DNA from: Escherichia phage ekra
Direction: 5' to 3' (one strand)
Sequence record: MN850644.1
Length of the DNA: 64,000 nucleotides
Below the pieces are notes generated by a model. It searched no databases. It was not told the origin of the DNA and worked only from the letters and a program-made list of their open reading frames with translations. Within the stretch, counting starts at the first letter, position 1. Every line of letters begins with the position of its first letter. The translations under genes and the position numbers were made by a program. This document shows, piece after piece, positions 1 through 40,461 of the stretch.

Positions 1-1465
1 CTTCTAACAAGCCTTCTAAACACTCTTCTAACAAGCCTTCTTAATAACCTATACAATCACCTTAACCATCCCTCTACACCCTCTTAGAAGCTCCTATACA
101 CCTCTTAATCTCTAGGTTAGCTATGTGACTCTCTATAGGTGTTCACTAGATATTACTAAGCCTCTATATAGACTGTTTTAACAAACTTAACAGGAATATC
201 TTTACAGACCTTATCTCACAAGGTCTAACACGGCACTAACAAGGTATCTTATAAGCCTGTTTCTACCTGTATTTTAGAAAGACTGTATAGGTAATTATTC
301 AGAATCTTAAAATTTTTATAAAATAGGACTATCAAGTCATTTTTTAGGGTCTTTGAAGGAACTGAAAAATATCTGTAGAAGATGTATATCTGCTTGGTAG
401 CCCTTAACAACTCCCTTACAAGTACTTTGCAAAATTTTAAAATATCCTTAACAATCTCTTAACAGTTCTCACATCTTCTTAACATCTCTTCAAAGGTCTT
501 AACAGATTCTTAACAGAACTAACAAGGGTGTAACAAATCTCTAACAAGTGCTACATAGACTTTACAGAATCTTAACAGATTGCTAACAAGAGCTAACAAG
601 TTAATTTTAAAGGATTATTTTGTAGGGATTGGTAACAATACCAATTAAGATAATTAACAAGTCTCTAACAAGTGTTTAATCTTTTTAACAAGCTGTTAAC
701 ATGGTCACTACTCTTTTCTTATCGTTCCCTTTCCTTTCTTAGTGATTCCTTAAACATACCTCTTAAAAGCTCTCTATAGCTCTTTATAAGCTCTTTTAAG
801 TCTCTTCCTAGTAGTTACACCCCAACTGTACAGATACCTCTTTATAGGGCTTTACAGGAGCTTTTAAGGCTATGTCAAAGACTCTTACAAGGCTTTTACG
901 TGGTCTTAACAAAGATTTAACAAGGGGCTAACAAGTTGCTAACAAGTGCCTTAAAAGCATAACTATGTAGGGATTGTTAAGAAATTGTTAAGAAAATGTT
1001 AAGGGGGCTAGCATTTACGTAACTTTTAAGCTACTTCAAAGTAACTTTAAAGCCCCTATAACATACTTTTCAGTTACTATCAAGGGGGTTGTTTAGTAGT
1101 TCACAAGATAGCTAACGAGATAATAAAGCTTACACCCTTATAAGATTCTTTTAAGGCTCTGTGAAGCTTTATAAAGGGCTTTTAAGGGTGAGGTAATGCA
1201 ATCCCTTAAGTTAGGTTAAAAAGGCCGTTATAGGGCTTTATATGGCGTTTAAATGGGTTGCCCCCTTTCTGGGGTTATTGGCTTATGTTTAAGGGCTTAT
1301 TAATAAGGCCAATTAATTGACTTAGTAAAAGGCTGTAAAGTTATTGCTTTTAAGGTCTGATAAGATTCTAGAAAGGAAAGGGAAAGGGATTGTATAAGGA
1401 TTCGATAGGATGCAAAAAGCCCCATTTAAGGGGCTGTATAAAGGTATCTGGGCTATTTAGCCCCG
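1..1465. repeat. Non-coding field of about 30 dispersed short repeats, consensus (C/T)TAACA(A/G), in both orientations, plus degenerate copies of the CTTTATAAG/AAGCTCTTTATA motif
   Basis: Read directly: cttctaacaagcc twice in first 40 nt, runs such as cttaacagattcttaacagaactaacaagg (about 497-530), ttaacaaggggctaacaagttgctaacaagtg (about 915-950), inverted copies tgttaag x3 near 975-1005; no ORF of 60 aa or more. Confidence 0.7.
1417..1437 (-). terminator. Hairpin (agcccc / aggggct) followed by T-run on minus strand, downstream of early gene cluster
   Basis: Inverted repeat aagccccatttaaggggct; minus-strand reading gives stem-loop then tttttgc. Confidence 0.45.
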
Positions 1466-11648: not shown

Positions 11649-12758
11649 TTAGATTTCACGTTTACGCTGAGAGATGAGTTCCCCAGCAGTGCCAACGATG
11701 ACATGCAAAGCTTCAGTCTTGCCATCCCATGCTTTCAGTACTTTACGTTGATTATCAACGATTGCTGCAACTTCATAACGTGATGAACGCATCTTCATAT
11801 CGTTGTAATCAGTTGGTACGGACACAACATCTCGTGGATGGACACGAACCTTCAGAATTGTATCACCTGAGAAGCAACGAACATAATCCCAAGCACCAAC
11901 ATGAAGACCTTGAGAGCAAGTCATGTTACGGTTATTATCAACCATCCAACGTGGCATTTCTACAATGTTACCCAAATCATTAGGTACTCTGTAGGTGTGG
12001 TAGTCAACCAGCTTGCCTTCACGAGTAGATACTTTCTTCCAACCAATGATGTAGCCTTCTTCATCAATTTCAACATCAAGGTGAGATACGAAGCCCCAAA
12101 GTTGTTCTACGGAATCTTTAGATGGGTTTTCCATCAGTTTTTCGAAGAACATCACAAGGCGTTCGAAACCTTTATCTCCAGTCTTCATCATGTGAAGAAT
12201 ACGGTCAACCAGAGTAGAACGCATCTCAACAGCACCGTAGAATAACTTGTCACCTTTGATGGTGATAGCACCCTGAGTGAAGTTTTCGATAGACTTACGA
12301 ATGTTCATCAGTTCGAAAGCTTTCTTATACTCACCGGATACAACAGCCATCACGATTTCTTTATAGTTCGGATGGGTAGATTCAACGATTTCAGAATCTG
12401 CACCGAAAGTCATGATAACAGAGTCACCAGTAATCATATACTCAATCTGGTTGCCATTCTGCATAGCTTCATGCAGTTTATTTACTGGAGCTTTCTGTAC
12501 AGCGTCTTTAACAACTTTTTCAACTGGCTTGTCAGCTTTCTTTTTAAAAGTCTTAGCAACTTGTTTCAAAGTCTTCGTAGCTGGTGTAGAAGTCGCCTTC
12601 TTATTCCCTTTTAAGGTTGCTTCATGACGCTCTACAGCACGACCGACTGAACGGGTTGAAGTATTAAATTTCTGTGCAATAGCTGTTTTAGTCAGCTTAC
12701 CTTCTTTAACCAGTTTGTAAATTTCTGCGTCAATCTGTGCTTTAGTTTTAGTAGTCAT
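11649..12758 (-). CDS. rIIB-like protein candidate (369 aa) with N-terminal HTH-like segment
   Basis: Positional partner immediately downstream of the rIIA-like gene; similar size class; N-terminus TAIAQKFNTSTRSVGRAV looks helix-turn-helix; no diagnostic motif. Confidence 0.35.
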   Translation of the reverse strand: MTTKTKAQIDAEIYKLVKEGKLTKTAIAQKFNTSTRSVGRAVERHEATLKGNKKATSTPATKTLKQVAKTFKKKADKPVEKVVKDAVQKAPVNKLHEAMQNGNQIEYMITGDSVIMTFGADSEIVESTHPNYKEIVMAVVSGEYKKAFELMNIRKSIENFTQGAITIKGDKLFYGAVEMRSTLVDRILHMMKTGDKGFERLVMFFEKLMENPSKDSVEQLWGFVSHLDVEIDEEGYIIGWKKVSTREGKLVDYHTYRVPNDLGNIVEMPRWMVDNNRNMTCSQGLHVGAWDYVRCFSGDTILKVRVHPRDVVSVPTDYNDMKMRSSRYEVAAIVDNQRKVLKAWDGKTEALHVIVGTAGELISQRKREI

Positions 12759-12839
12759 CTTATTACTCTCTCTCTTGTTAGTTAATAAATCATTTTGTGA
12801 TGCTATTTTAAGGGGTTTTGAAGCCCCTTGTCAAACACT

Positions 12840-15206
12840 TTAATCGTAAATTGTAGTTCCTTCTGGAACACATTTTACATCAAAACCTAAGAACTTACTC
12901 ACTTCGATGGGTGACACTTTATTCCAATCTAAATGAGAAAGCAAGAAGTTTTCTTGTTTTCTTTTTGAAAGATAGTTTGTCACCTTAATAACCATACGGT
13001 CACCAGCTTTCTTAATTTTCTTGTAAAGCTTTGTATCGTTGTCAAGACAGTCTTTCAAAGTTTTCAATACACTAATAGTATAAGTGTATGCAAATGGTGC
13101 AGCAACGTATTGGATTTTACCGAACATTGCCTCTACAGCCTCTTCATTACCTTCTAGGAAGATAGTTTTGTTTGTATCCCGTGAATAGCAATAACCACGA
13201 GAAATCTTCCTATTATTGAATGTAAAGTTTCTGGCAATAATCCAGCTACTTGTAAGGTCAAGAACACCATTCATGTAGATGCGTGTCATATACCTGTTGT
13301 GATTAATCCAATGAACATCAGTTAAGCTGTCGTTCAAGAGCTTCTCATCTACTTCAATCCAGTCTTCTGGTATCTTTTTCCAATTTGCTTTTCGGAAAAC
13401 ATAGACTGTCTTTCCAATAACATTAGTAACTGACTTAGCTACATCTTCTGGGGATGAGCAAAAACATTCACCATCAACTGTGTCACCAATTGCCTTAATG
13501 TAAAGCTGAGGTTCTTCAATTGTGTCTAAGTCCTCTGACACCTCTTTGTAGGAGGCTACACCTTCTGCTGGAACAGCTTTCCAGAGTTTTACAACACCTC
13601 TTACAGCTTCTTTACGCTGGTAATGGTGTTCCTTATCAGACATTTTCACAATCTTTAACAAGCTTTTATCAAGTTTGTGTAGATTGATTAAATCATCTAA
13701 CTCTTTTTCAGTCGAGAATACAAACACAATACCATTATATCTGTGAAACAGACTGGACTCACTGGCGTAGTCTCGACATGCACCACGCAGAATCTGATTG
13801 CGGCCTACAGTCTTCTCAGTACCGTTTTTATTGCGACGGTCATTAATAACAAACAAAAACTGTTCAATTTGACTTTTACGCATTGCACCAAAGATATTGA
13901 ACATACTTGCCTCTTGAGTGTAGGAAAGTGCTGTTGCACGAATCTTACTCTCTAAAGAGTTGAACTTGACATAAGCAACTGGATTGTATAGGTAGTCAAC
14001 TTTAGGGATATTGTTTCCTTTGCTGTCAACCTTAATATTGCCTTTGCCGTCACGTTCATAGACGACTGAGCCGTCTTCTGCGTAGATAATTCCACGACGA
14101 ATGTTTAACAATTCTTCTTCCAGAGAGTCAAGCTTAACACCTCCCCACTCTAACTTTGGACACACAGCATTAAACATCTCTCGTGAGTTCAAACGTAACT
14201 CAGCATAAGCCTGTGCAGCATCCATGAGTGTAGGTTGACTGTTAACTTTCTTGATAACATCCTTTGTAATTGCTTCAGTTATCTTTTTAGTAGCCTCAAT
14301 GATAACATTTTTTGTCGTGTCATTCATCTGCAATGCTTCACGAGAAGCTGCAATAGCGACTGAACCAATAGGCATGTAGATGTTTACAAGGTCTACGCTC
14401 CTACGGAAAAATTCTGGCAAGACTTTGAAGAAATCATCGCCAAGTAATGCTTCCATATTAACTGGGTAGGCAATATTACCCATTACCACATTAAAATCTG
14501 TCCTGTTGCCACTAGAACGCCAGCTTTGCTTATGAATCATAGCATCATAAACACCTTCTTCACGGGCAATGACGTTCATATCTGCTAACACGTCATCATA
14601 CACAATGTTACTTTCTGGTTTTACAGCAAAGTATGAGTATACGTGACCAGCCTCTTCAAAGAACTTTGAGATGCGGTGGTCAGCAACTGCCACACGTACA
14701 GCTAAACCATTAGGTTCTTTTGTTGGGTTAGTTGTCAGCTTAGTTACTTGAGGGATACCATTCTCAAGGTAAACAGAGTACTTATTAACAACACCATCAA
14801 CATAGCTAGATACTGTGAATGACTGAGCAATTGCAAATGGTGACTTTGAGCCGATACCCATTGCACCAATGTAGTCATTGGAGTCATTCTTTGTAGAAGC
14901 CCCGTAGTTTAGGTACAAGCTCATAACTTTGTCATGAGTTAATCCAGTTCCAAAATCACGAACTTCAAAGTAAGGCTCAAAACGAGTAGGTAAATGCACA
15001 TGGAATGGGATGTTCTCTTTTCCAGCTTCTTTCTGAGCATCTACTGCGTTACATGACAGTTCACGAATAACTGCCCTTTCTTTAAATGTGTATACACCAG
15101 AACTCAAAAGGCTGAACATTTCAGGTGTCATTGTAATCTGTGCTTGAGACGTCTCTAAAGAAGTTGAACTCTTAATCACTTCTGCGTGGTCGTTTACCAT
15201 GCGCAT
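12840..15206 (-). CDS. rIIA: rIIA-like protein with N-terminal GHKL/HATPase-type ATPase fold
   Basis: N-box-like ELSCNAVDA and G1-box-like DFGTGLT near N-terminus; 788 aa; adjacent putative rIIB. Confidence 0.5.
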   Translation of the reverse strand: MRMVNDHAEVIKSSTSLETSQAQITMTPEMFSLLSSGVYTFKERAVIRELSCNAVDAQKEAGKENIPFHVHLPTRFEPYFEVRDFGTGLTHDKVMSLYLNYGASTKNDSNDYIGAMGIGSKSPFAIAQSFTVSSYVDGVVNKYSVYLENGIPQVTKLTTNPTKEPNGLAVRVAVADHRISKFFEEAGHVYSYFAVKPESNIVYDDVLADMNVIAREEGVYDAMIHKQSWRSSGNRTDFNVVMGNIAYPVNMEALLGDDFFKVLPEFFRRSVDLVNIYMPIGSVAIAASREALQMNDTTKNVIIEATKKITEAITKDVIKKVNSQPTLMDAAQAYAELRLNSREMFNAVCPKLEWGGVKLDSLEEELLNIRRGIIYAEDGSVVYERDGKGNIKVDSKGNNIPKVDYLYNPVAYVKFNSLESKIRATALSYTQEASMFNIFGAMRKSQIEQFLFVINDRRNKNGTEKTVGRNQILRGACRDYASESSLFHRYNGIVFVFSTEKELDDLINLHKLDKSLLKIVKMSDKEHHYQRKEAVRGVVKLWKAVPAEGVASYKEVSEDLDTIEEPQLYIKAIGDTVDGECFCSSPEDVAKSVTNVIGKTVYVFRKANWKKIPEDWIEVDEKLLNDSLTDVHWINHNRYMTRIYMNGVLDLTSSWIIARNFTFNNRKISRGYCYSRDTNKTIFLEGNEEAVEAMFGKIQYVAAPFAYTYTISVLKTLKDCLDNDTKLYKKIKKAGDRMVIKVTNYLSKRKQENFLLSHLDWNKVSPIEVSKFLGFDVKCVPEGTTIYD

Positions 15207-33287: not shown

Positions 33288-35279
33288 TCACTCAGTTTCG
33301 AACGGGCAGTCATCTGCATCCTCACTTAATACAGGTGGAATCGTTGAACTTTGACGCTGTTCTTCAGTATAGACTTCACCAGTCTCACGGTCAAACACTT
33401 CATCCTCATAATGAGGTAAAGAGTCATCATAATGGTCTTCAGCTTCACCAATACCAAACTGCTGGCGAATATTTTCTGCTGCACCATCAATATCAACACC
33501 ACATCCAGAAGCTTTGATAAGACGTCCTGTATCTGGATTGTACCAAGTATGACCAGCAATACCTGTTGACTTACCATGACGACGACACTTAGTTAACTTG
33601 ATTTTTGTCAAGTTTTTCTTAACAGGGTCTGGGTCAACCTTGTTACGCATTAACAGGATGTTATTCATAGAAATCTGGAAATACGCACCAGAACCTTTGA
33701 TATCCTCTTCAGAGATGTCTCCACCTTCAGAGTTGGCTTTCTGACCACCTGCACTCTTACGAACGTGACATACGTTTACCTGTGCATACTGGTAGCGTTT
33801 GCAACGACGCAATAGCTCAGACAAGACTTCCTCTTCATCCGTATCAGAACGTGACAGAGCCAACGTAATAGGGTCAAGAATAATAATCTTACAGTCTAAA
33901 CTGTTAACAAGGTAGTCAACAAACTCTAGCAGGTTATCTTGGTCAATTGCCCCTTGATGGTCAACGATATGGATACGACGACCTTTAGACAGTTCTGCGT
34001 GTGCTCCTTTTAATTCATCCCAATCCCGTTCATCATAAGGAATCTCAGAAATCTGTTTGCTCAGGTGGATTGCACAGAGCATCTCCATCAACTCTTCATA
34101 GGTATCTTCTACAGGAATTACACCGATATTATAGTCAGTTTCTTTCCAAGCGGAATAAATCATCTCACGAGTGTAAGCTGACTTACCTACTGAGGATGGT
34201 GCTGCCAGAGTTGTAATCTCACCTAAACCATAACCACCATAAGTCAGTCTGTTCAAATCTCCGAAAGATTCTGGGAAAGGAATCAATGGAATCTGACCAC
34301 GATTCTTCATTGCCTCAAAACCATCTGCGAAGTTCTTGATACCAGCAGGACAGTAACGAGGTGCATTGTAGATACGCTGCTTAAATCCTTCCAGAACTGT
34401 ATCTTTCTCTTTATAGAACTTTGTCCACCACTCGTTAAGGTCTTTTACACCTTCTGGATACTGGAATAAACGAACCTTCTCAATAGGGAGAATACCAGCA
34501 GCCTCTTTGGTAGCTTTAGCACCTGCTTCATCGTTATCAAAGCACAAGTAAATCTCATTAAATGATGTAATGTACTGATAGTTGTCTTTGATAGACTTGA
34601 TGTTTGCACCTGATGGAACAGATACGTGACAGTAATTCTTACGACGAGACTTGTCCTTAATCGCAAGAGAAGTCATATAGATTGCTGTTGCACATTCCAT
34701 CTCACCTTCCCAGATGAATAGACGGTTACCACCTTCTGGAGCAATCCATGAACCAAACATTGCCAGTTCACCTTTAATGTCTCCAACACCACCTGAAAAG
34801 TCTTTTAGTTTACCTCGTAGGTGTTCTTTTGGATGGTCTTCTGGGTAACGGTGACGAACACGGTAGCCAACATGTTCTAGCTTACCATCTTCATTACGTT
34901 TGTAAGTTGGATAGAAGTGCGCATCAATTTCACCGTCACTGTCAATGTCAATCTTAATACCCAAACGCTCAAGAACTTTTGCAGGAATCTTCCTGTCTTT
35001 CAAGTCCATTGCTTCTAGGTTTTCTTTTACATCGTCTAAATCCATTCCACGGAAAGTACGGTTTTTATTGTCTGAACCAGTAGAATAAGTGCTCACGATT
35101 TGTCCTTTATCAAAATCCCACTCTGGGAAACCTTTGTTACAACTAAAGCAAGTCATCGAATAAGAATCATCGTCATGATGATAGATTGAACCAGCATCTG
35201 ATGAACCACAACGTGGACATGCACAATGACCAATAAACTGACCAGCCTCTTTCAATTTACGACCTTTAGACATTAGCAC
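33288..35279 (-). CDS. Bifunctional DNA primase-helicase (T7 gp4-like)
   Basis: N-terminal zinc finger CACPRCGSSD...CFSCNKGF; Walker A APSSVGKSAY in C-terminal DnaB-like half; 663 aa. Confidence 0.8.
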   Translation of the reverse strand: MLMSKGRKLKEAGQFIGHCACPRCGSSDAGSIYHHDDDSYSMTCFSCNKGFPEWDFDKGQIVSTYSTGSDNKNRTFRGMDLDDVKENLEAMDLKDRKIPAKVLERLGIKIDIDSDGEIDAHFYPTYKRNEDGKLEHVGYRVRHRYPEDHPKEHLRGKLKDFSGGVGDIKGELAMFGSWIAPEGGNRLFIWEGEMECATAIYMTSLAIKDKSRRKNYCHVSVPSGANIKSIKDNYQYITSFNEIYLCFDNDEAGAKATKEAAGILPIEKVRLFQYPEGVKDLNEWWTKFYKEKDTVLEGFKQRIYNAPRYCPAGIKNFADGFEAMKNRGQIPLIPFPESFGDLNRLTYGGYGLGEITTLAAPSSVGKSAYTREMIYSAWKETDYNIGVIPVEDTYEELMEMLCAIHLSKQISEIPYDERDWDELKGAHAELSKGRRIHIVDHQGAIDQDNLLEFVDYLVNSLDCKIIILDPITLALSRSDTDEEEVLSELLRRCKRYQYAQVNVCHVRKSAGGQKANSEGGDISEEDIKGSGAYFQISMNNILLMRNKVDPDPVKKNLTKIKLTKCRRHGKSTGIAGHTWYNPDTGRLIKASGCGVDIDGAAENIRQQFGIGEAEDHYDDSLPHYEDEVFDRETGEVYTEEQRQSSTIPPVLSEDADDCPFETE

Positions 35280-37504: not shown

Positions 37505-37761
37505 GTAAGCCTCTTTTAAGTAACTATTTAGTTTTAATCTTTTATCTTAACGTATTCTATACGTTATACTTTAAAGCTTTTTAAAAGCTATTAAATAATC
37601 TTTTAAGAGTTTTAAAGTATCTGTATAGTTAAACTGTTAAGTAACCTTTTAAGTAAAAACCCACTTCGCAAAGATTAACACCTTGTCAAGTGCATTGTCA
37701 ACTTGCTTTTTATAATTTTTTGCAGTAATGTATGAGGTTAATGATTTTAGAGGGAGTAAAA
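37505..37761. promoter_or_regulatory. Divergent intergenic region at the strand switch; AT-rich, contains duplicated TTGTCAA and TATAAT-like hexamers
   Basis: No ORF; ccttgtcaagtgcattgtcaacttgctttttataatt; genes diverge from here on both strands. Confidence 0.45.
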
Positions 37762-40461
37762 ATGGAAAACGTAGATTTTAAAAACTTACATTTAGTTGGT
37801 GATACAGAAACTGATGGTTTACTCCTTGAGTTCACTAAAGTGCACGTAATGGCTTTCGCAGACTATAAATCTGACGATGAAGAGCCACCTGTATGGGTCT
37901 TTACAGATGAGCCTATCCTCGGTCACAAGTACACTAAGTACATCAAGGGCGGCTTACGTGAAGGTGTTGAATTTGCGTTAAAGGCAAAACGTCTTTGCAT
38001 CCATAATGGTCTCGGCTATGACTGGTGGGTTTTCAATCACATTGCGCCTGATTTATGGAACTTTGATAATCCAAAATGTAAGCCGTGGAGTAATTTCTTT
38101 CAGGATTCTCTTATCCAGTCTCGTGTTCAGTGGATGGATAGGCCAACCCCAAAGGGTTATAAAGGTGCTCATGGTTTGGCTGCATGGGGTGCTCGTGTTG
38201 GTGTCCGTAAACCAGAGATTGAACATTGGGGTGTGTGGAATGCAGAAATCTTCACTCGTGTTGTAGAAGATATCCGTATTAACGCCAAAACTAAACGGGC
38301 ACTTGATAATGAGTATCTCAAGCTTAAGAAGTGTGGCATAGATACTTATGAAACCTATATGCGAGCTAAAGAAACATCTTTCTGGATGAGTCAACAAGCT
38401 ATCAATGGTTGGAAAGCTGATAAGGAGCTTATGGAGTTCCATGTAAAGGAACTTGACAAGTTGACTAATGAGCTTGCTTCAGAGGTTGAACCACATCTTC
38501 CTCCAACTATTAAGACCAAAGGTAAAGTGACTGGAGAAGAGTTTGCAAAAGCTTGGAATGAGTATGTTGAAACATTTGGTCATGCAGATGGACTGAAGAG
38601 GATTACCAAGTACCCTAAGACAAAGTATCGTCAGCAGGTACGTAATGGTGAGATGCAGACATATGAAATCAAGCCATTTGGTAAGCCAACTACAAAGATT
38701 TTTAACATTGAAAAGAGAAATTGCTATACACCAACCAACTCTGTAACTGGTGAAGAGTACAAGGAGGGTTTTGTAGCAATGAAGGATGCTCGTGAAATTT
38801 GCAATGAGTTGAATGCAAAGATTGGTAAGAAATGCAAAGACTGGAAGCCAGTAAAAACAGTCAAAACTGTGAAGTACTATAACAGTCACGTTGTTAACCA
38901 CTTTGAACTTGAGTCAAGTCGCTACACAGGTTTGATTGATGCACCGTATACACCAATTGAGTTTGAAGTTTCTCGTATGACTCAGGTAGCAGTTGTTAAA
39001 GACTACTTGAAATCAGTTGGTTGGATTCCAGATGACTGGAACTACAAGAAAGACTCAGATGGTCGCCCTGTCAAAGTTTGTCGTTTCAAAGACAATAAAA
39101 AGATGATTACAAAACATCCTAAGTGGCAGGAAATGGTTGAGCGGTGTGGTTTGAGCTATGTTGAGCACGAAGGTGTACAGTATATTGAGCATAACTGGTC
39201 TGTGAAGAAGTACACAGATTTGCTTGAGCCTTGCTTAATCCGTACTTCACCAAAACTTACTGAATCATCTTATGATACGATTGAAGGTGAGCTTGGACAG
39301 AAGATTGCGAAATACTACACTTTGATGCACAGACGCAGAACTATTGAGAACTCAAAGGATGATGAAAAAGGTTGGTTGAACCAGATTCGTCCTGATGGTC
39401 GCCTTAGTGCTGGTGCAATGGTGTTTGGTACTTCAACTGGACGTATGACACAATATGGTATTGTAAACGTACCGTCTGGTGCTGCTGTCTATGGGGAACC
39501 AATGAGGGCAGTGTGGATTTGTGAGGAAGGGACTAACGTTGTCTCTGTAGACATGAACTCAGCCCAGCTAGTTCTTCTTTGTAACTTTATGGGTGACAAA
39601 GACTTCACCAAAGCGGTAACGCAAGGTAAAGAAGAGATTGAGTTCATTCGTCAAGAAGATGGACGCTATTACTGCAAACATTTTGATGAGTATCTCAACC
39701 CAGAAATTGATAAGTACCTTCGCTATGACTCTGAGAATGACCTGTACGTTGTCTATTCAGGGACTGATGCACATACACTGAACAGTATTTACTTTAGCTT
39801 GAATGATGAGCAGGATATCTTGACTTGTCGAGCTACTCAGGATGAGAATCTTCTTCATGAGATTAGCAAAGGTCGTAAGAAAGCTAAGAATGGTATCTAT
39901 GCACTGCTGTTCGGTGCAGGTGATGAGAAGTTTGCTAAGACGATTAAAGCTGCAACTACTCAGGAAGGAGCACTGACTAAACAGACTTACTTTATTCGTT
40001 TGCCTAAAATTAAGAAGCTGCTAGATGACTTGGAAGCTGACTACAAAGCAACTAAAAAGGCACTTGAAGAGGTGTTTGGTAAGACTGCTGCAATCTCTAA
40101 AGGGGGTTTTGTAAAGGTTGCTGGAGCTTGGTTGTGGTGTAAATCTCCACATAAGTTATTGAATTATTTGCTCATGGGTTCAGAGGCTCAGATTCAAAAT
40201 GAGGCGATTAACCTTGCTTGTAGAAGAGCATGTGAAGAAGGGTTGACAAAATTAAATGGACGAAAACCAGCAATTGGTGCTAGGCTTTTGCTGGCATACC
40301 ACGATGAAAACAGTTGGGAGTGCCCAGAAAGTATGACTCAAGAAGTTAAAGCCATAACTGACTGGATGTATGGTCAGGCATCTAAGAATTTAGGTTTGAA
40401 GAGTGAGACGCTTGTAACTGGCACAGGTAAGGTTGGTAAGAGCTGGTTGGAAGTGCATTGA
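37762..40461 (+). CDS. DNA polymerase, family A (T7/Pol I-like)
   Basis: Motif A-like SVDMNSAQL, motif B-like KAKNGIYALLFGAG, motif C LLAYHDE; start placed at ATG with GGGAG RBS (MENVDF). Confidence 0.85.
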   Translation: MENVDFKNLHLVGDTETDGLLLEFTKVHVMAFADYKSDDEEPPVWVFTDEPILGHKYTKYIKGGLREGVEFALKAKRLCIHNGLGYDWWVFNHIAPDLWNFDNPKCKPWSNFFQDSLIQSRVQWMDRPTPKGYKGAHGLAAWGARVGVRKPEIEHWGVWNAEIFTRVVEDIRINAKTKRALDNEYLKLKKCGIDTYETYMRAKETSFWMSQQAINGWKADKELMEFHVKELDKLTNELASEVEPHLPPTIKTKGKVTGEEFAKAWNEYVETFGHADGLKRITKYPKTKYRQQVRNGEMQTYEIKPFGKPTTKIFNIEKRNCYTPTNSVTGEEYKEGFVAMKDAREICNELNAKIGKKCKDWKPVKTVKTVKYYNSHVVNHFELESSRYTGLIDAPYTPIEFEVSRMTQVAVVKDYLKSVGWIPDDWNYKKDSDGRPVKVCRFKDNKKMITKHPKWQEMVERCGLSYVEHEGVQYIEHNWSVKKYTDLLEPCLIRTSPKLTESSYDTIEGELGQKIAKYYTLMHRRRTIENSKDDEKGWLNQIRPDGRLSAGAMVFGTSTGRMTQYGIVNVPSGAAVYGEPMRAVWICEEGTNVVSVDMNSAQLVLLCNFMGDKDFTKAVTQGKEEIEFIRQEDGRYYCKHFDEYLNPEIDKYLRYDSENDLYVVYSGTDAHTLNSIYFSLNDEQDILTCRATQDENLLHEISKGRKKAKNGIYALLFGAGDEKFAKTIKAATTQEGALTKQTYFIRLPKIKKLLDDLEADYKATKKALEEVFGKTAAISKGGFVKVAGAWLWCKSPHKLLNYLLMGSEAQIQNEAINLACRRACEEGLTKLNGRKPAIGARLLLAYHDENSWECPESMTQEVKAITDWMYGQASKNLGLKSETLVTGTGKVGKSWLEVH

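Follow-up and report, generated by a model that had tools for sequence, protein, structure and literature searches.

A gene-free field between converging gene clusters

We investigated positions 1-1465 of a 64-kb window (the whole stretch of DNA that was analysed) of Escherichia phage ekra (MN850644.1), which on the evidence of its DNA matches is a Felixounavirus, a Felix O1-like myophage. A DNA search with positions 1-1500 matched 243 phage records, nearly all of them Felix O1-type phages of Escherichia, Salmonella, Shigella and Citrobacter by name, with 94.8% identity in the best match and a query coverage of at least 80% in 177 records. The field matched almost only Ounavirinae-type phages in these DNA searches, together with one record named as a Staphylococcus phage.

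The field had been described as free of open reading frames, and this holds: positions 1-1465 contain no ORF of at least 60 aa, the longest ORF with a start codon has 53 aa, the longest stop-free stretch in any frame has 69 aa, and no long frame crosses the left edge. The suspicion that it continues past position 1 also proved correct, as in relatives a further 230 nt or so of non-coding sequence lie ahead of it, reaching back to the upstream gene's terminator. In annotated relatives two gene clusters converge on the field, a left-hand cluster of rightward lysis and tail genes and a right-hand cluster of small, leftward early genes. The counterpart in Felix O1 (12,280-13,726) is the gap between genes 23 and 24, according to the transcription-unit list of the Felix O1 paper.

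An intrinsic terminator hairpin on the minus strand (1418-1435) ends the leftward early-gene cluster, and transcription is thus predicted to halt ahead of the repeat that is described below; a counterpart terminator in relatives, approximately 200 nt upstream of window position 1, ends the other cluster. This hairpin was the sole meaningful signal to emerge alongside a sigma-70 promoter scan of the field, which gave no convincing excess. An Rfam scan of positions 1-2000 at E<=1 returned two chance-level matches only, and no IHF consensus was found in the field. Elsewhere, the window carries genes for a primase-helicase of the Toprim/DnaB type and for a polymerase of family A, and its far end falls within tail genes (a tape-measure protein and a DUF3383 ORF); the gene for the large terminase subunit lies outside the 64-kb window.

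The field comprises the following parts, given by window coordinates and by strand where one applies.

1-395, no strand: unique non-coding flank, predicted to precede the right-end repeat copy in the virion; conservation about 0.9 across 14 relatives
1-41, plus strand: 12-bp tandem CTTCTAACAAGC units, 3.4 copies by TRF, combining TTCTAA (at 2, 14 and 26) with TAACAAG
179-241, plus strand: two TAACA pairs (179/188 and 226/237) that lie beyond the repeat, kept in 11-14 of 14 relatives
286-325, no strand: 40-mer with the highest A+T content in the field (88%), at a distance of 70 bp from the repeat boundary on its outer side
396-1008, no strand: putative direct terminal repeat (DTR), 613 bp, placed by the record ends of relatives and by boundary words
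396-432, plus strand: left bracket, GGTAGCCCTTAACA followed by degenerate 11-bp units TTACAAG and TTTGCAA pointing inward (inverted-repeat pair I3, boundary alignment)
449-701, plus strand: main TAACA array, 16 copies in a single orientation, in clusters at 9-11 bp and in one helical phase (motif positions, Rayleigh test)
756-870, no strand: CT-rich segment in the repeat, with CTTWWAAG-type units CTCTTAAAAG, CTCTTTATAAG, CTCTTTTAAG and GCTTTTAAGG at a 10-11-bp period (TRF periods 10, 11 and 21)
907-948, plus strand: four TAACA(A)G units at exact 11-bp steps (907, 918, 929 and 940; motif positions, TRF)
973-1008, minus strand: right bracket, reversed TGTTAAG at 975, 986 and 997, then GGGGGC at the terminus (11-bp period, 95% matches)
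1009-1465, no strand: unique non-coding flank, predicted to follow the left-end repeat copy; G-rich, with CTTWWAAG(G) units (motif list)
1133-1158/1165-1190, no strand: palindromic pair in the right flank (inverted-repeat search)
1418-1435, minus strand: intrinsic terminator hairpin

The probable assignment of 396-1008 as a DTR makes 1-395 and 1009-1465 its non-coding flanks. A perfect 15-nt inverted repeat (725-739/1370-1384) was dropped from the list, as its second arm is unconserved.

Strand, spacing and conservation of the TAACA array

Within positions 1-1465 we identified 28 copies of TAACA on the plus strand and four on the minus strand, with 25 copies that fit YTAACAR. The original prediction had placed about 30 heptamers here in both orientations; the number stands, but at a strand bias of 28:4 the arrangement is two-way only nominally. 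Of the four reversed copies, three sit together in a single cluster phased at 11 bp (975-997).

The enrichment is not a product of local base composition, which was the first point on which the array had been open to doubt. A first-order Markov model of the region predicts 3.2 +/- 1.8 copies and reached at most 11 in 5000 simulations; the prediction rises to 9.7 +/- 3.0 (maximum 25) with a second-order model and is 2.3 from the rest of the window, and the 28 copies on the plus strand far exceed all three. Longer words are more exclusive still: CTAACAAG has ten copies in the field, and none on the plus strand and two on the minus strand of the other 62.5 kb, while TAACAAG is enriched 85-fold in the field, so that both extended words are essentially private to it within the 64 kb. 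The second motif noted in the region is likewise genuine, with 11 of the 41 window copies of CTTWWAAG lying within 1-1465, mostly at 750-1350. TAACA and CTTWWAAG represent at least two motif families in the field, and differ in distribution.

Neighbouring copies of TAACA lie 9-11 bp apart in 14 of 27 cases and exactly 11 bp apart in 11 of 27, and TRF detects arrays of period 10 to 12 in the field. Most of the copies on the plus strand (21 of 28) fall inside 396-1008, where they share a helical phase, with a best Rayleigh period of 10.45 bp (R=0.78). This phase beats all 2000 controls under a uniform-position null (p<0.0005), and 96% of controls under a null in which whole clusters were randomly moved (p=0.04); the long-range phasing is only modestly significant when local tandem spacing is kept in this way. 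The arrays of the related phages HP1, I14.1 and NBEco005 have periods of 10.40-10.45 bp (R 0.72-0.81), despite their unequal repeat lengths.

The region is kept among relatives, which disposes of the second doubt, that it might be absent or unconserved in them. In an alignment of 14 genomes, conservation within the repeat is 93.8% at the cores and 85.4% at other positions, and most single TAACA copies are present in all 14 genomes; in the main array (449-701), 13 of the 16 copies are kept in at least 13 of 14 relatives. The best-conserved part of the field is the right bracket (973-1008), with a sliding conservation of 0.95-0.98. Against HP1, a Mooglevirus and the most distant alignable relative, cores are 89.4% and spacers 68.2% conserved, a difference that is matched by no circular shift of the core mask.

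Genome ends of relatives and the putative terminal repeat

Several related records start or stop within the field at the identical nucleotide. Citrobacter phage HP1 (Mooglevirus) has a 570-bp repeat_region annotated at both ends, and the records of I14.1 and NBEco005 carry 581 bp and 651 bp, respectively, that are identical at both ends. The ends of these three records, which come from different laboratories, map to window positions 396 and 1008: read from the outside in, they begin 5'-GGTAGCCCTTAACA... and 5'-GCCCCCTTAACA..., corresponding to 396 and, on the other strand, 1008. Window positions 1-1008 align to the left ends of all three records, which run opposite to the window orientation, past the repeat and into unique DNA. 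Hafnia phage SPARTY, which belongs to another genus (Kolesnikvirus), has 439 bp identical at both ends, and its ends are exactly homologous to these two window positions, one lying after a conserved TATATCTGCTT and the other after ...GTGGC; the record of Erwinia phage Prophecy begins at most 1 nt from the homologous site. A further record end, that of RPN213 near window position 318, was rejected as a genuine terminus, since the ends of this record carry no repeat, and was taken as an arbitrary start.

The boundary words GGTAGCCC and TAAGGGGGC, separated by 613 bp in the window, are invariant in 19 distinct relatives, and the adjoining sequence on their outer sides is likewise unchanged, or almost so, over approximately 15 nt. 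From the positions of these ends and words we infer that 396-1008 is a 613-bp DTR, that the window holds its single junction copy, and that virion DNA, in the window orientation, starts at 396 and ends at 1008. The earlier suggestion of a terminal region was therefore right, as relatives with mapped ends place both physical termini inside the field. HP1, I14.1, NBEco005 and SPARTY display two of the features expected of a DTR of the T7 type, namely an identical sequence at both record ends, and fixed, conserved termini.

Related genomes have been described in similar terms. The available text on the Felix O1-like phage Ro111lw gives a 613-bp DTR by PhageTerm (PMC6454146), that on SPARTY a 439-bp DTR by PhageTerm (PMC8928762), and that on Fifi106 and Fifi318 further PhageTerm descriptions of Felix O1-like genomes (PMC11984208). 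The accessible part of the HP1 paper mentions direct repeats at both genome termini, and that of the paper on the Felix O1 genome deduces "short terminal repeats" solely from the size of the genome. The published PhageTerm results establish Felix O1-like genomes as non-permuted with short DTRs, and both the existence and the approximate length of the DTR in these phages are already published. The searched passages of the PhageTerm papers concern the same repeat at the homologous place and give its length only; in the searchable text of the literature on Felix O1-like repeats and origin, we found no description of the array of TAACA units, of its phasing and stepwise lengths, or of the inverted brackets.

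The two ends of the repeat are mutually inverted arrays of three inward-pointing TTAACA-type units at 11-bp phase. In the inverted-repeat pair I3, CCCTTAACAACTCCCTTACAAGTACTTTGCAA (401-432) matches CCCTTAACATTTTCTTAACAATTTCTTAACAA, the complement of 974-1005. Thus, the sole reversed cluster of the field is the right-hand bracket. The distance from the putative cut to the motif differs by 2 nt between the left and right boundaries.

Repeat lengths in 19 relatives fall into classes of 570, 580-582, 590-592, 601-603, 613-614 and 623 bp, with a step of approximately 10.6 bp, about one unit or one helical turn; lengths of 651 and 658 bp also occur, and fit these classes less exactly. Extra TTTTCTTAACA units are present at the right bracket in some genomes (L049 and L090). 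The indels of 10-11 bp argue against a hidden coding function.

We additionally identified the same architecture in Kolesnikvirus phages of Erwinia and Hafnia, in which blastn similarity is limited to about 85-125 nt. These phages keep a gene-free gap of approximately 1.4 kb, in which TAACA lies on one strand and the right border is marked by a cluster of reversed units, and the 439-bp repeat contains 14 copies of TAACA against 0.9 expected. The first unit of the left boundary is degenerate (AGTGGTCGCCTCTCAGAAGTTAACC), so that strict symmetry of the CCCTTAACA bracket does not hold throughout the subfamily. In the right flank, 12 TTAGAA units are found in place of the CTTWWAAG of this window, the flanks evolving differently.

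A candidate packaging junction and competing explanations

It is plausible that the array would be bound by a single DNA-binding protein, as had been proposed; this is favoured by the helical phasing, by the conservation of cores above that of spacers, and by the persistence of the array across genera, although the field contains at least two motif families (TAACA and CTTWWAAG). On balance, we lean slightly towards a reading in which the array is a cis-acting surface for protein binding, through which the junction repeat and the two sites of its cleavage would be marked for packaging. Three 11-bp units lie directly inside each terminus, as would be expected of a packaging site.

The field would in that case be a concatemer-junction region, with the repeat between two transcriptionally closed, gene-free flanks. 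A sequence-specific phage protein would cooperatively coat the phased sites and so mark the repeat on replicated concatemers, and the bracket units would position cleavage of opposite strands at the two boundaries. The 5' ends in the records of relatives would place the top-strand cut at 395/396 (...TGCTT/GGTAGCCCTTAACA) and the bottom-strand cut at 1008/1009 (...TGCTA/GCCCCCTTAACA); with this putative polarity and chemistry of nicking, the resulting 5' overhangs would be filled in by polymerase, giving a repeat at both ends of every packaged genome. Fill-in of 5' overhangs, regenerating both repeats, is the general model for T7-type DTR phages.

Candidates for the coating protein would be the terminase itself, or a small subunit or accessory factor that has escaped recognition. 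No small terminase subunit, nor any DNA-binding domain, was recognisable among the genes beside the large subunit and beside the field in the relative bumzen. There, only one ORF separates the large-subunit gene from the tRNA block; it encodes 66 aa, has no Pfam match and belongs to a PHROG of unknown function. The accessible text of the Felix O1 paper reports only a large terminase subunit.

A more specific form of the packaging reading, which we regard as possible though on the doubtful side, would make the repeat a molecular ruler. The factor would polymerise on the approximately 20 phased TAACA units and be stopped by the inverted triplets at both borders, placing the opposite-strand cuts approximately 600 bp apart and so defining the end duplication. 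Gain or loss of one unit would then shift the repeat length by one helical turn, with function kept.

The CCTAAAG array of T7 is the closest precedent for the array in ekra. The terminal repetition of T7, with its arrays of CCTAAAG heptamers, was reportedly described by Dunn and Studier in 1983. The first 340 bp of the T7 genome hold 11 copies of CCTAAAG in one orientation, several of them at 13-bp steps, with three inside the 160-bp repeat and eight just beyond it. Both phages have a short, non-permuted DTR (putative in ekra) in a gene-free junction, and in both a short motif recurs many times, pointing one way, within the repeat and next to it. The motif and the phage are nevertheless unrelated (TAACA as opposed to CCTAAAG, ekra being a myovirus whose large terminase subunit is of the T4 type), and no T7-like phage was matched in DNA searches with the field. 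The ekra units differ further in lying mostly within the repeat and not beside it, in their helical phase of 10.45 bp, and in their closure by inverted triplets. To our knowledge, the function of the T7 array has never been firmly established.

Short repeats are also clustered where the genome is cut for packaging in the R sites of lambda cosB, the hexamers of P1 pac, and SPP1 pacL/pacR. These sites comprise 3-7 repeats beside one cut, whereas ekra has approximately 20 units over 600 bp between two putative cuts, with binding that is itself putative, and is without a recognisable small subunit. In Twort-like and SPO1-like phages, inverted repeats bracket the long terminal repeats, so that, as in ekra, one short sequence occurs in opposite orientations at both repeat borders. 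Those repeats are kilobases in length and gene-bearing, with a single 12-bp bracket word, whereas the ekra bracket belongs to the motif family of the repeat itself.

Units once per helical turn, along which a small protein polymerises and wraps the DNA, are known from ParR-parC of plasmid R1 and from p6 of phi29, the latter acting at genome ends. Ekra lacks par genes beside the field and protein-primed replication, and the resemblance is to a possible mechanism only. When IMG/VR was scanned for sets of four TAACA cores placed 11 bp apart, the matches listed included Felix O1-like contigs and mostly simple tandem repeats in unrelated viruses, which says little about the distribution of the motif. 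Among them, a 14.1-kb phi29-like contig (L101) ends in inverted terminal repeats of 119 bp that are densely filled with TGTAACA at an 11-bp phase, a similar device in an unrelated genome.

Alternatively, the phased TAACA units might be iteron-like sites at which a phage initiator, such as the primase-helicase, melts a nearby AT-rich stretch; from their place in the terminal repeat, they would provide two origins per genome. We judge a replication origin of this kind fairly unlikely. In its favour, the repeats are direct, phased and conserved, genes for the primase-helicase and the family A polymerase are present in the window, and satellite phage P4 uses arrays of short octamers as its origin sites. 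AT-rich 40-mers lie at 286-325 and 423-462 (80% A+T in the latter), in a field whose G+C content is only 31-38% throughout. However, cores of 7 bp at 10-11 bp are unlike iterons of 17-22 bp, and the inverted brackets in which the array ends coincide exactly with the putative physical termini, which an origin would not need. No initiator-like gene adjoins the field, the genes on either side have no recognisable function, and there is no cluster of DnaA boxes (one site with one mismatch in the field, and a chance level in the whole window). The GC skew does change sign across the field, but this switch is absent from the flanking genes and is explained by motif composition.

The repeat would be carried at both virion ends and would thus always be the first DNA into the cell, where a co-injected, early or host protein might coat the phased sites as p6 does in phi29, either as a shield against exonucleases or as an organiser of the ends for concatemers. 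A terminal nucleoprotein of this type is, in our estimate, unlikely. Phasing on one face over more than 500 bp would suit wrapping of the DNA, the array fills the terminal repeat, and the ends of the phi29-like contig, among the matches listed, are comparably packed; yet we identified no candidate protein, and the phage polymerase is of family A, with no protein-primed replication. Coating of the ends would also leave two features unexplained, namely the inversion of the outermost units exactly at the putative cut sites, and the six further copies outside the repeat.

An explanation that requires no protein appears very unlikely. The array would here be a minisatellite made by slippage, or intrinsically curved DNA, tolerated in a gene-free junction in which only the boundary words matter for cutting. 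Whole units are indeed gained and lost among relatives, including the extra TTTTCTTAACA of L049 and L090, pointing to active slippage or unequal exchange. Against this, cores are conserved far above spacers, most individual copies are retained in 14 of 14 relatives, and an identical core persists in genera beyond alignment; the spacers vary between units, unlike the simple tandem repeats of unrelated contigs among the matches listed.

Finally, a transcription-factor sink or a partition-type centromere, both raised in the original prediction, is highly improbable: TTAACA differs by a single base from TTGACA, the -35 hexamer of sigma-70, and several units score as weak promoter-like sites, and the 10-11-bp phased units resemble the iterons of R1 parC, but promoter-like sites (9, against 5.5 +/- 2.1 in shuffles) are not clearly above expectation, the motif is absent from promoters elsewhere in the 64 kb and from the rest of the window in general, and this is a virulent phage without par genes in the flanks, where no recognisable initiator, partition or DNA-binding domain was found in the window or in bumzen. 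A host-takeover region, suggested at the same time, does not agree with a field that holds no genes.

The array of ekra is a feature of the T7 kind in an unrelated myovirus lineage. How borders are recognised and repeats regenerated in phages with exact DTRs is poorly understood, even for T7, and a PhageTerm note that was published for one Felix O1-like phage, in its available text, treats the generation of the repeat as understood only in general terms. The repeat studied here has a legible grammar, of one motif on one strand and one helical face, closed by inverted brackets and provided with natural length variants of whole units, and it occurs in engineerable phages of E. coli and Salmonella, with Bas63 as a close relative. 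The boundary words GGTAGCCC and TAAGGGGGC can be used to locate the true ends of many Felix O1-like records that start arbitrarily. If the repeat does act as a molecular ruler in packaging, it would explain, in concrete and testable terms, the way in which phages of the T7 type gauge the length of their terminal repeats and restore them.

Symmetrical elements and early-gene cassettes

We identified the following symmetrical elements in and beside the direct terminal repeat (DTR):

725-739 and 1370-1384, perfect 15-nt inverted repeat with arms 630 nt apart (TTCCCTTTCCTTTCT / AGAAAGGAAAGGGAA)
1133-1190, near-palindromic pair with 6 nt between (CACCCTTATAAGATTCTTTTAAGGCT / AGCTTTATAAAGGGCTTTTAAGGGTG)

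The second arm of the 15-nt repeat (1370-1384) is absent or changed in several relatives, indicating that this repeat is probably due to chance. The near-palindromic pair lies in the flank adjoining the DTR and is made of CTTWWAAG units. Dispersed copies of this motif were also found in the early region (1844, 2622, 3281, 3980 and 5754, among others). A cassette stands ahead of every small early gene read leftward (1740-1930, and other early-gene gaps to approximately 12 kb), comprising a G+C-rich hairpin (GGGGAGGCAATAACATCCCC), CTTWWAAG-type words and a near-consensus promoter:

1911-1883, minus strand, TTGACA-17-TAAATT

Terminal motifs in other phages

In Kolesnikvirus, the flank adjoining the DTR contains 12 TTAGAA units at steps of roughly 10-12 bp (SPARTY, L147:560-870; phiEa104, L022), in contrast to the CTTWWAAG units of ekra. 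The flank motifs differ between genera, whereas the TAACA motif of the DTR is unchanged.

We additionally noted a similar motif grammar at the physical genome ends of a phi29-like contig of 14,105 bp (L101), although it is unrelated to the window. This contig encodes a type B protein-primed polymerase, a Phi29-type capsid protein and a connector, and 11-bp-phased (C)TGTAACA units fill both of its inverted terminal repeats:

L101:1-119 and L101:13987-14105, 119 bp each

A further contig, L117, resembles L101.

The metadata of two relatives look wrong: I14.1 (L006/L007, PP892526.1) is labelled Tequintavirus (Demerecviridae), yet aligns to the Felixounavirus window at 82-88% identity, and NBEco005 (L008/L009, MN994499.1) is marked circular despite a 651-bp repeat at both ends.

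Replication genes

Two replication genes lie on opposite strands, with a few kb between them:

33288-35279, minus strand, Toprim/DnaB-type primase-helicase
37732-40461, plus strand, family A DNA polymerase

A strand-switch region of this type is one in which a replication origin might be looked for, rather than in the DTR.
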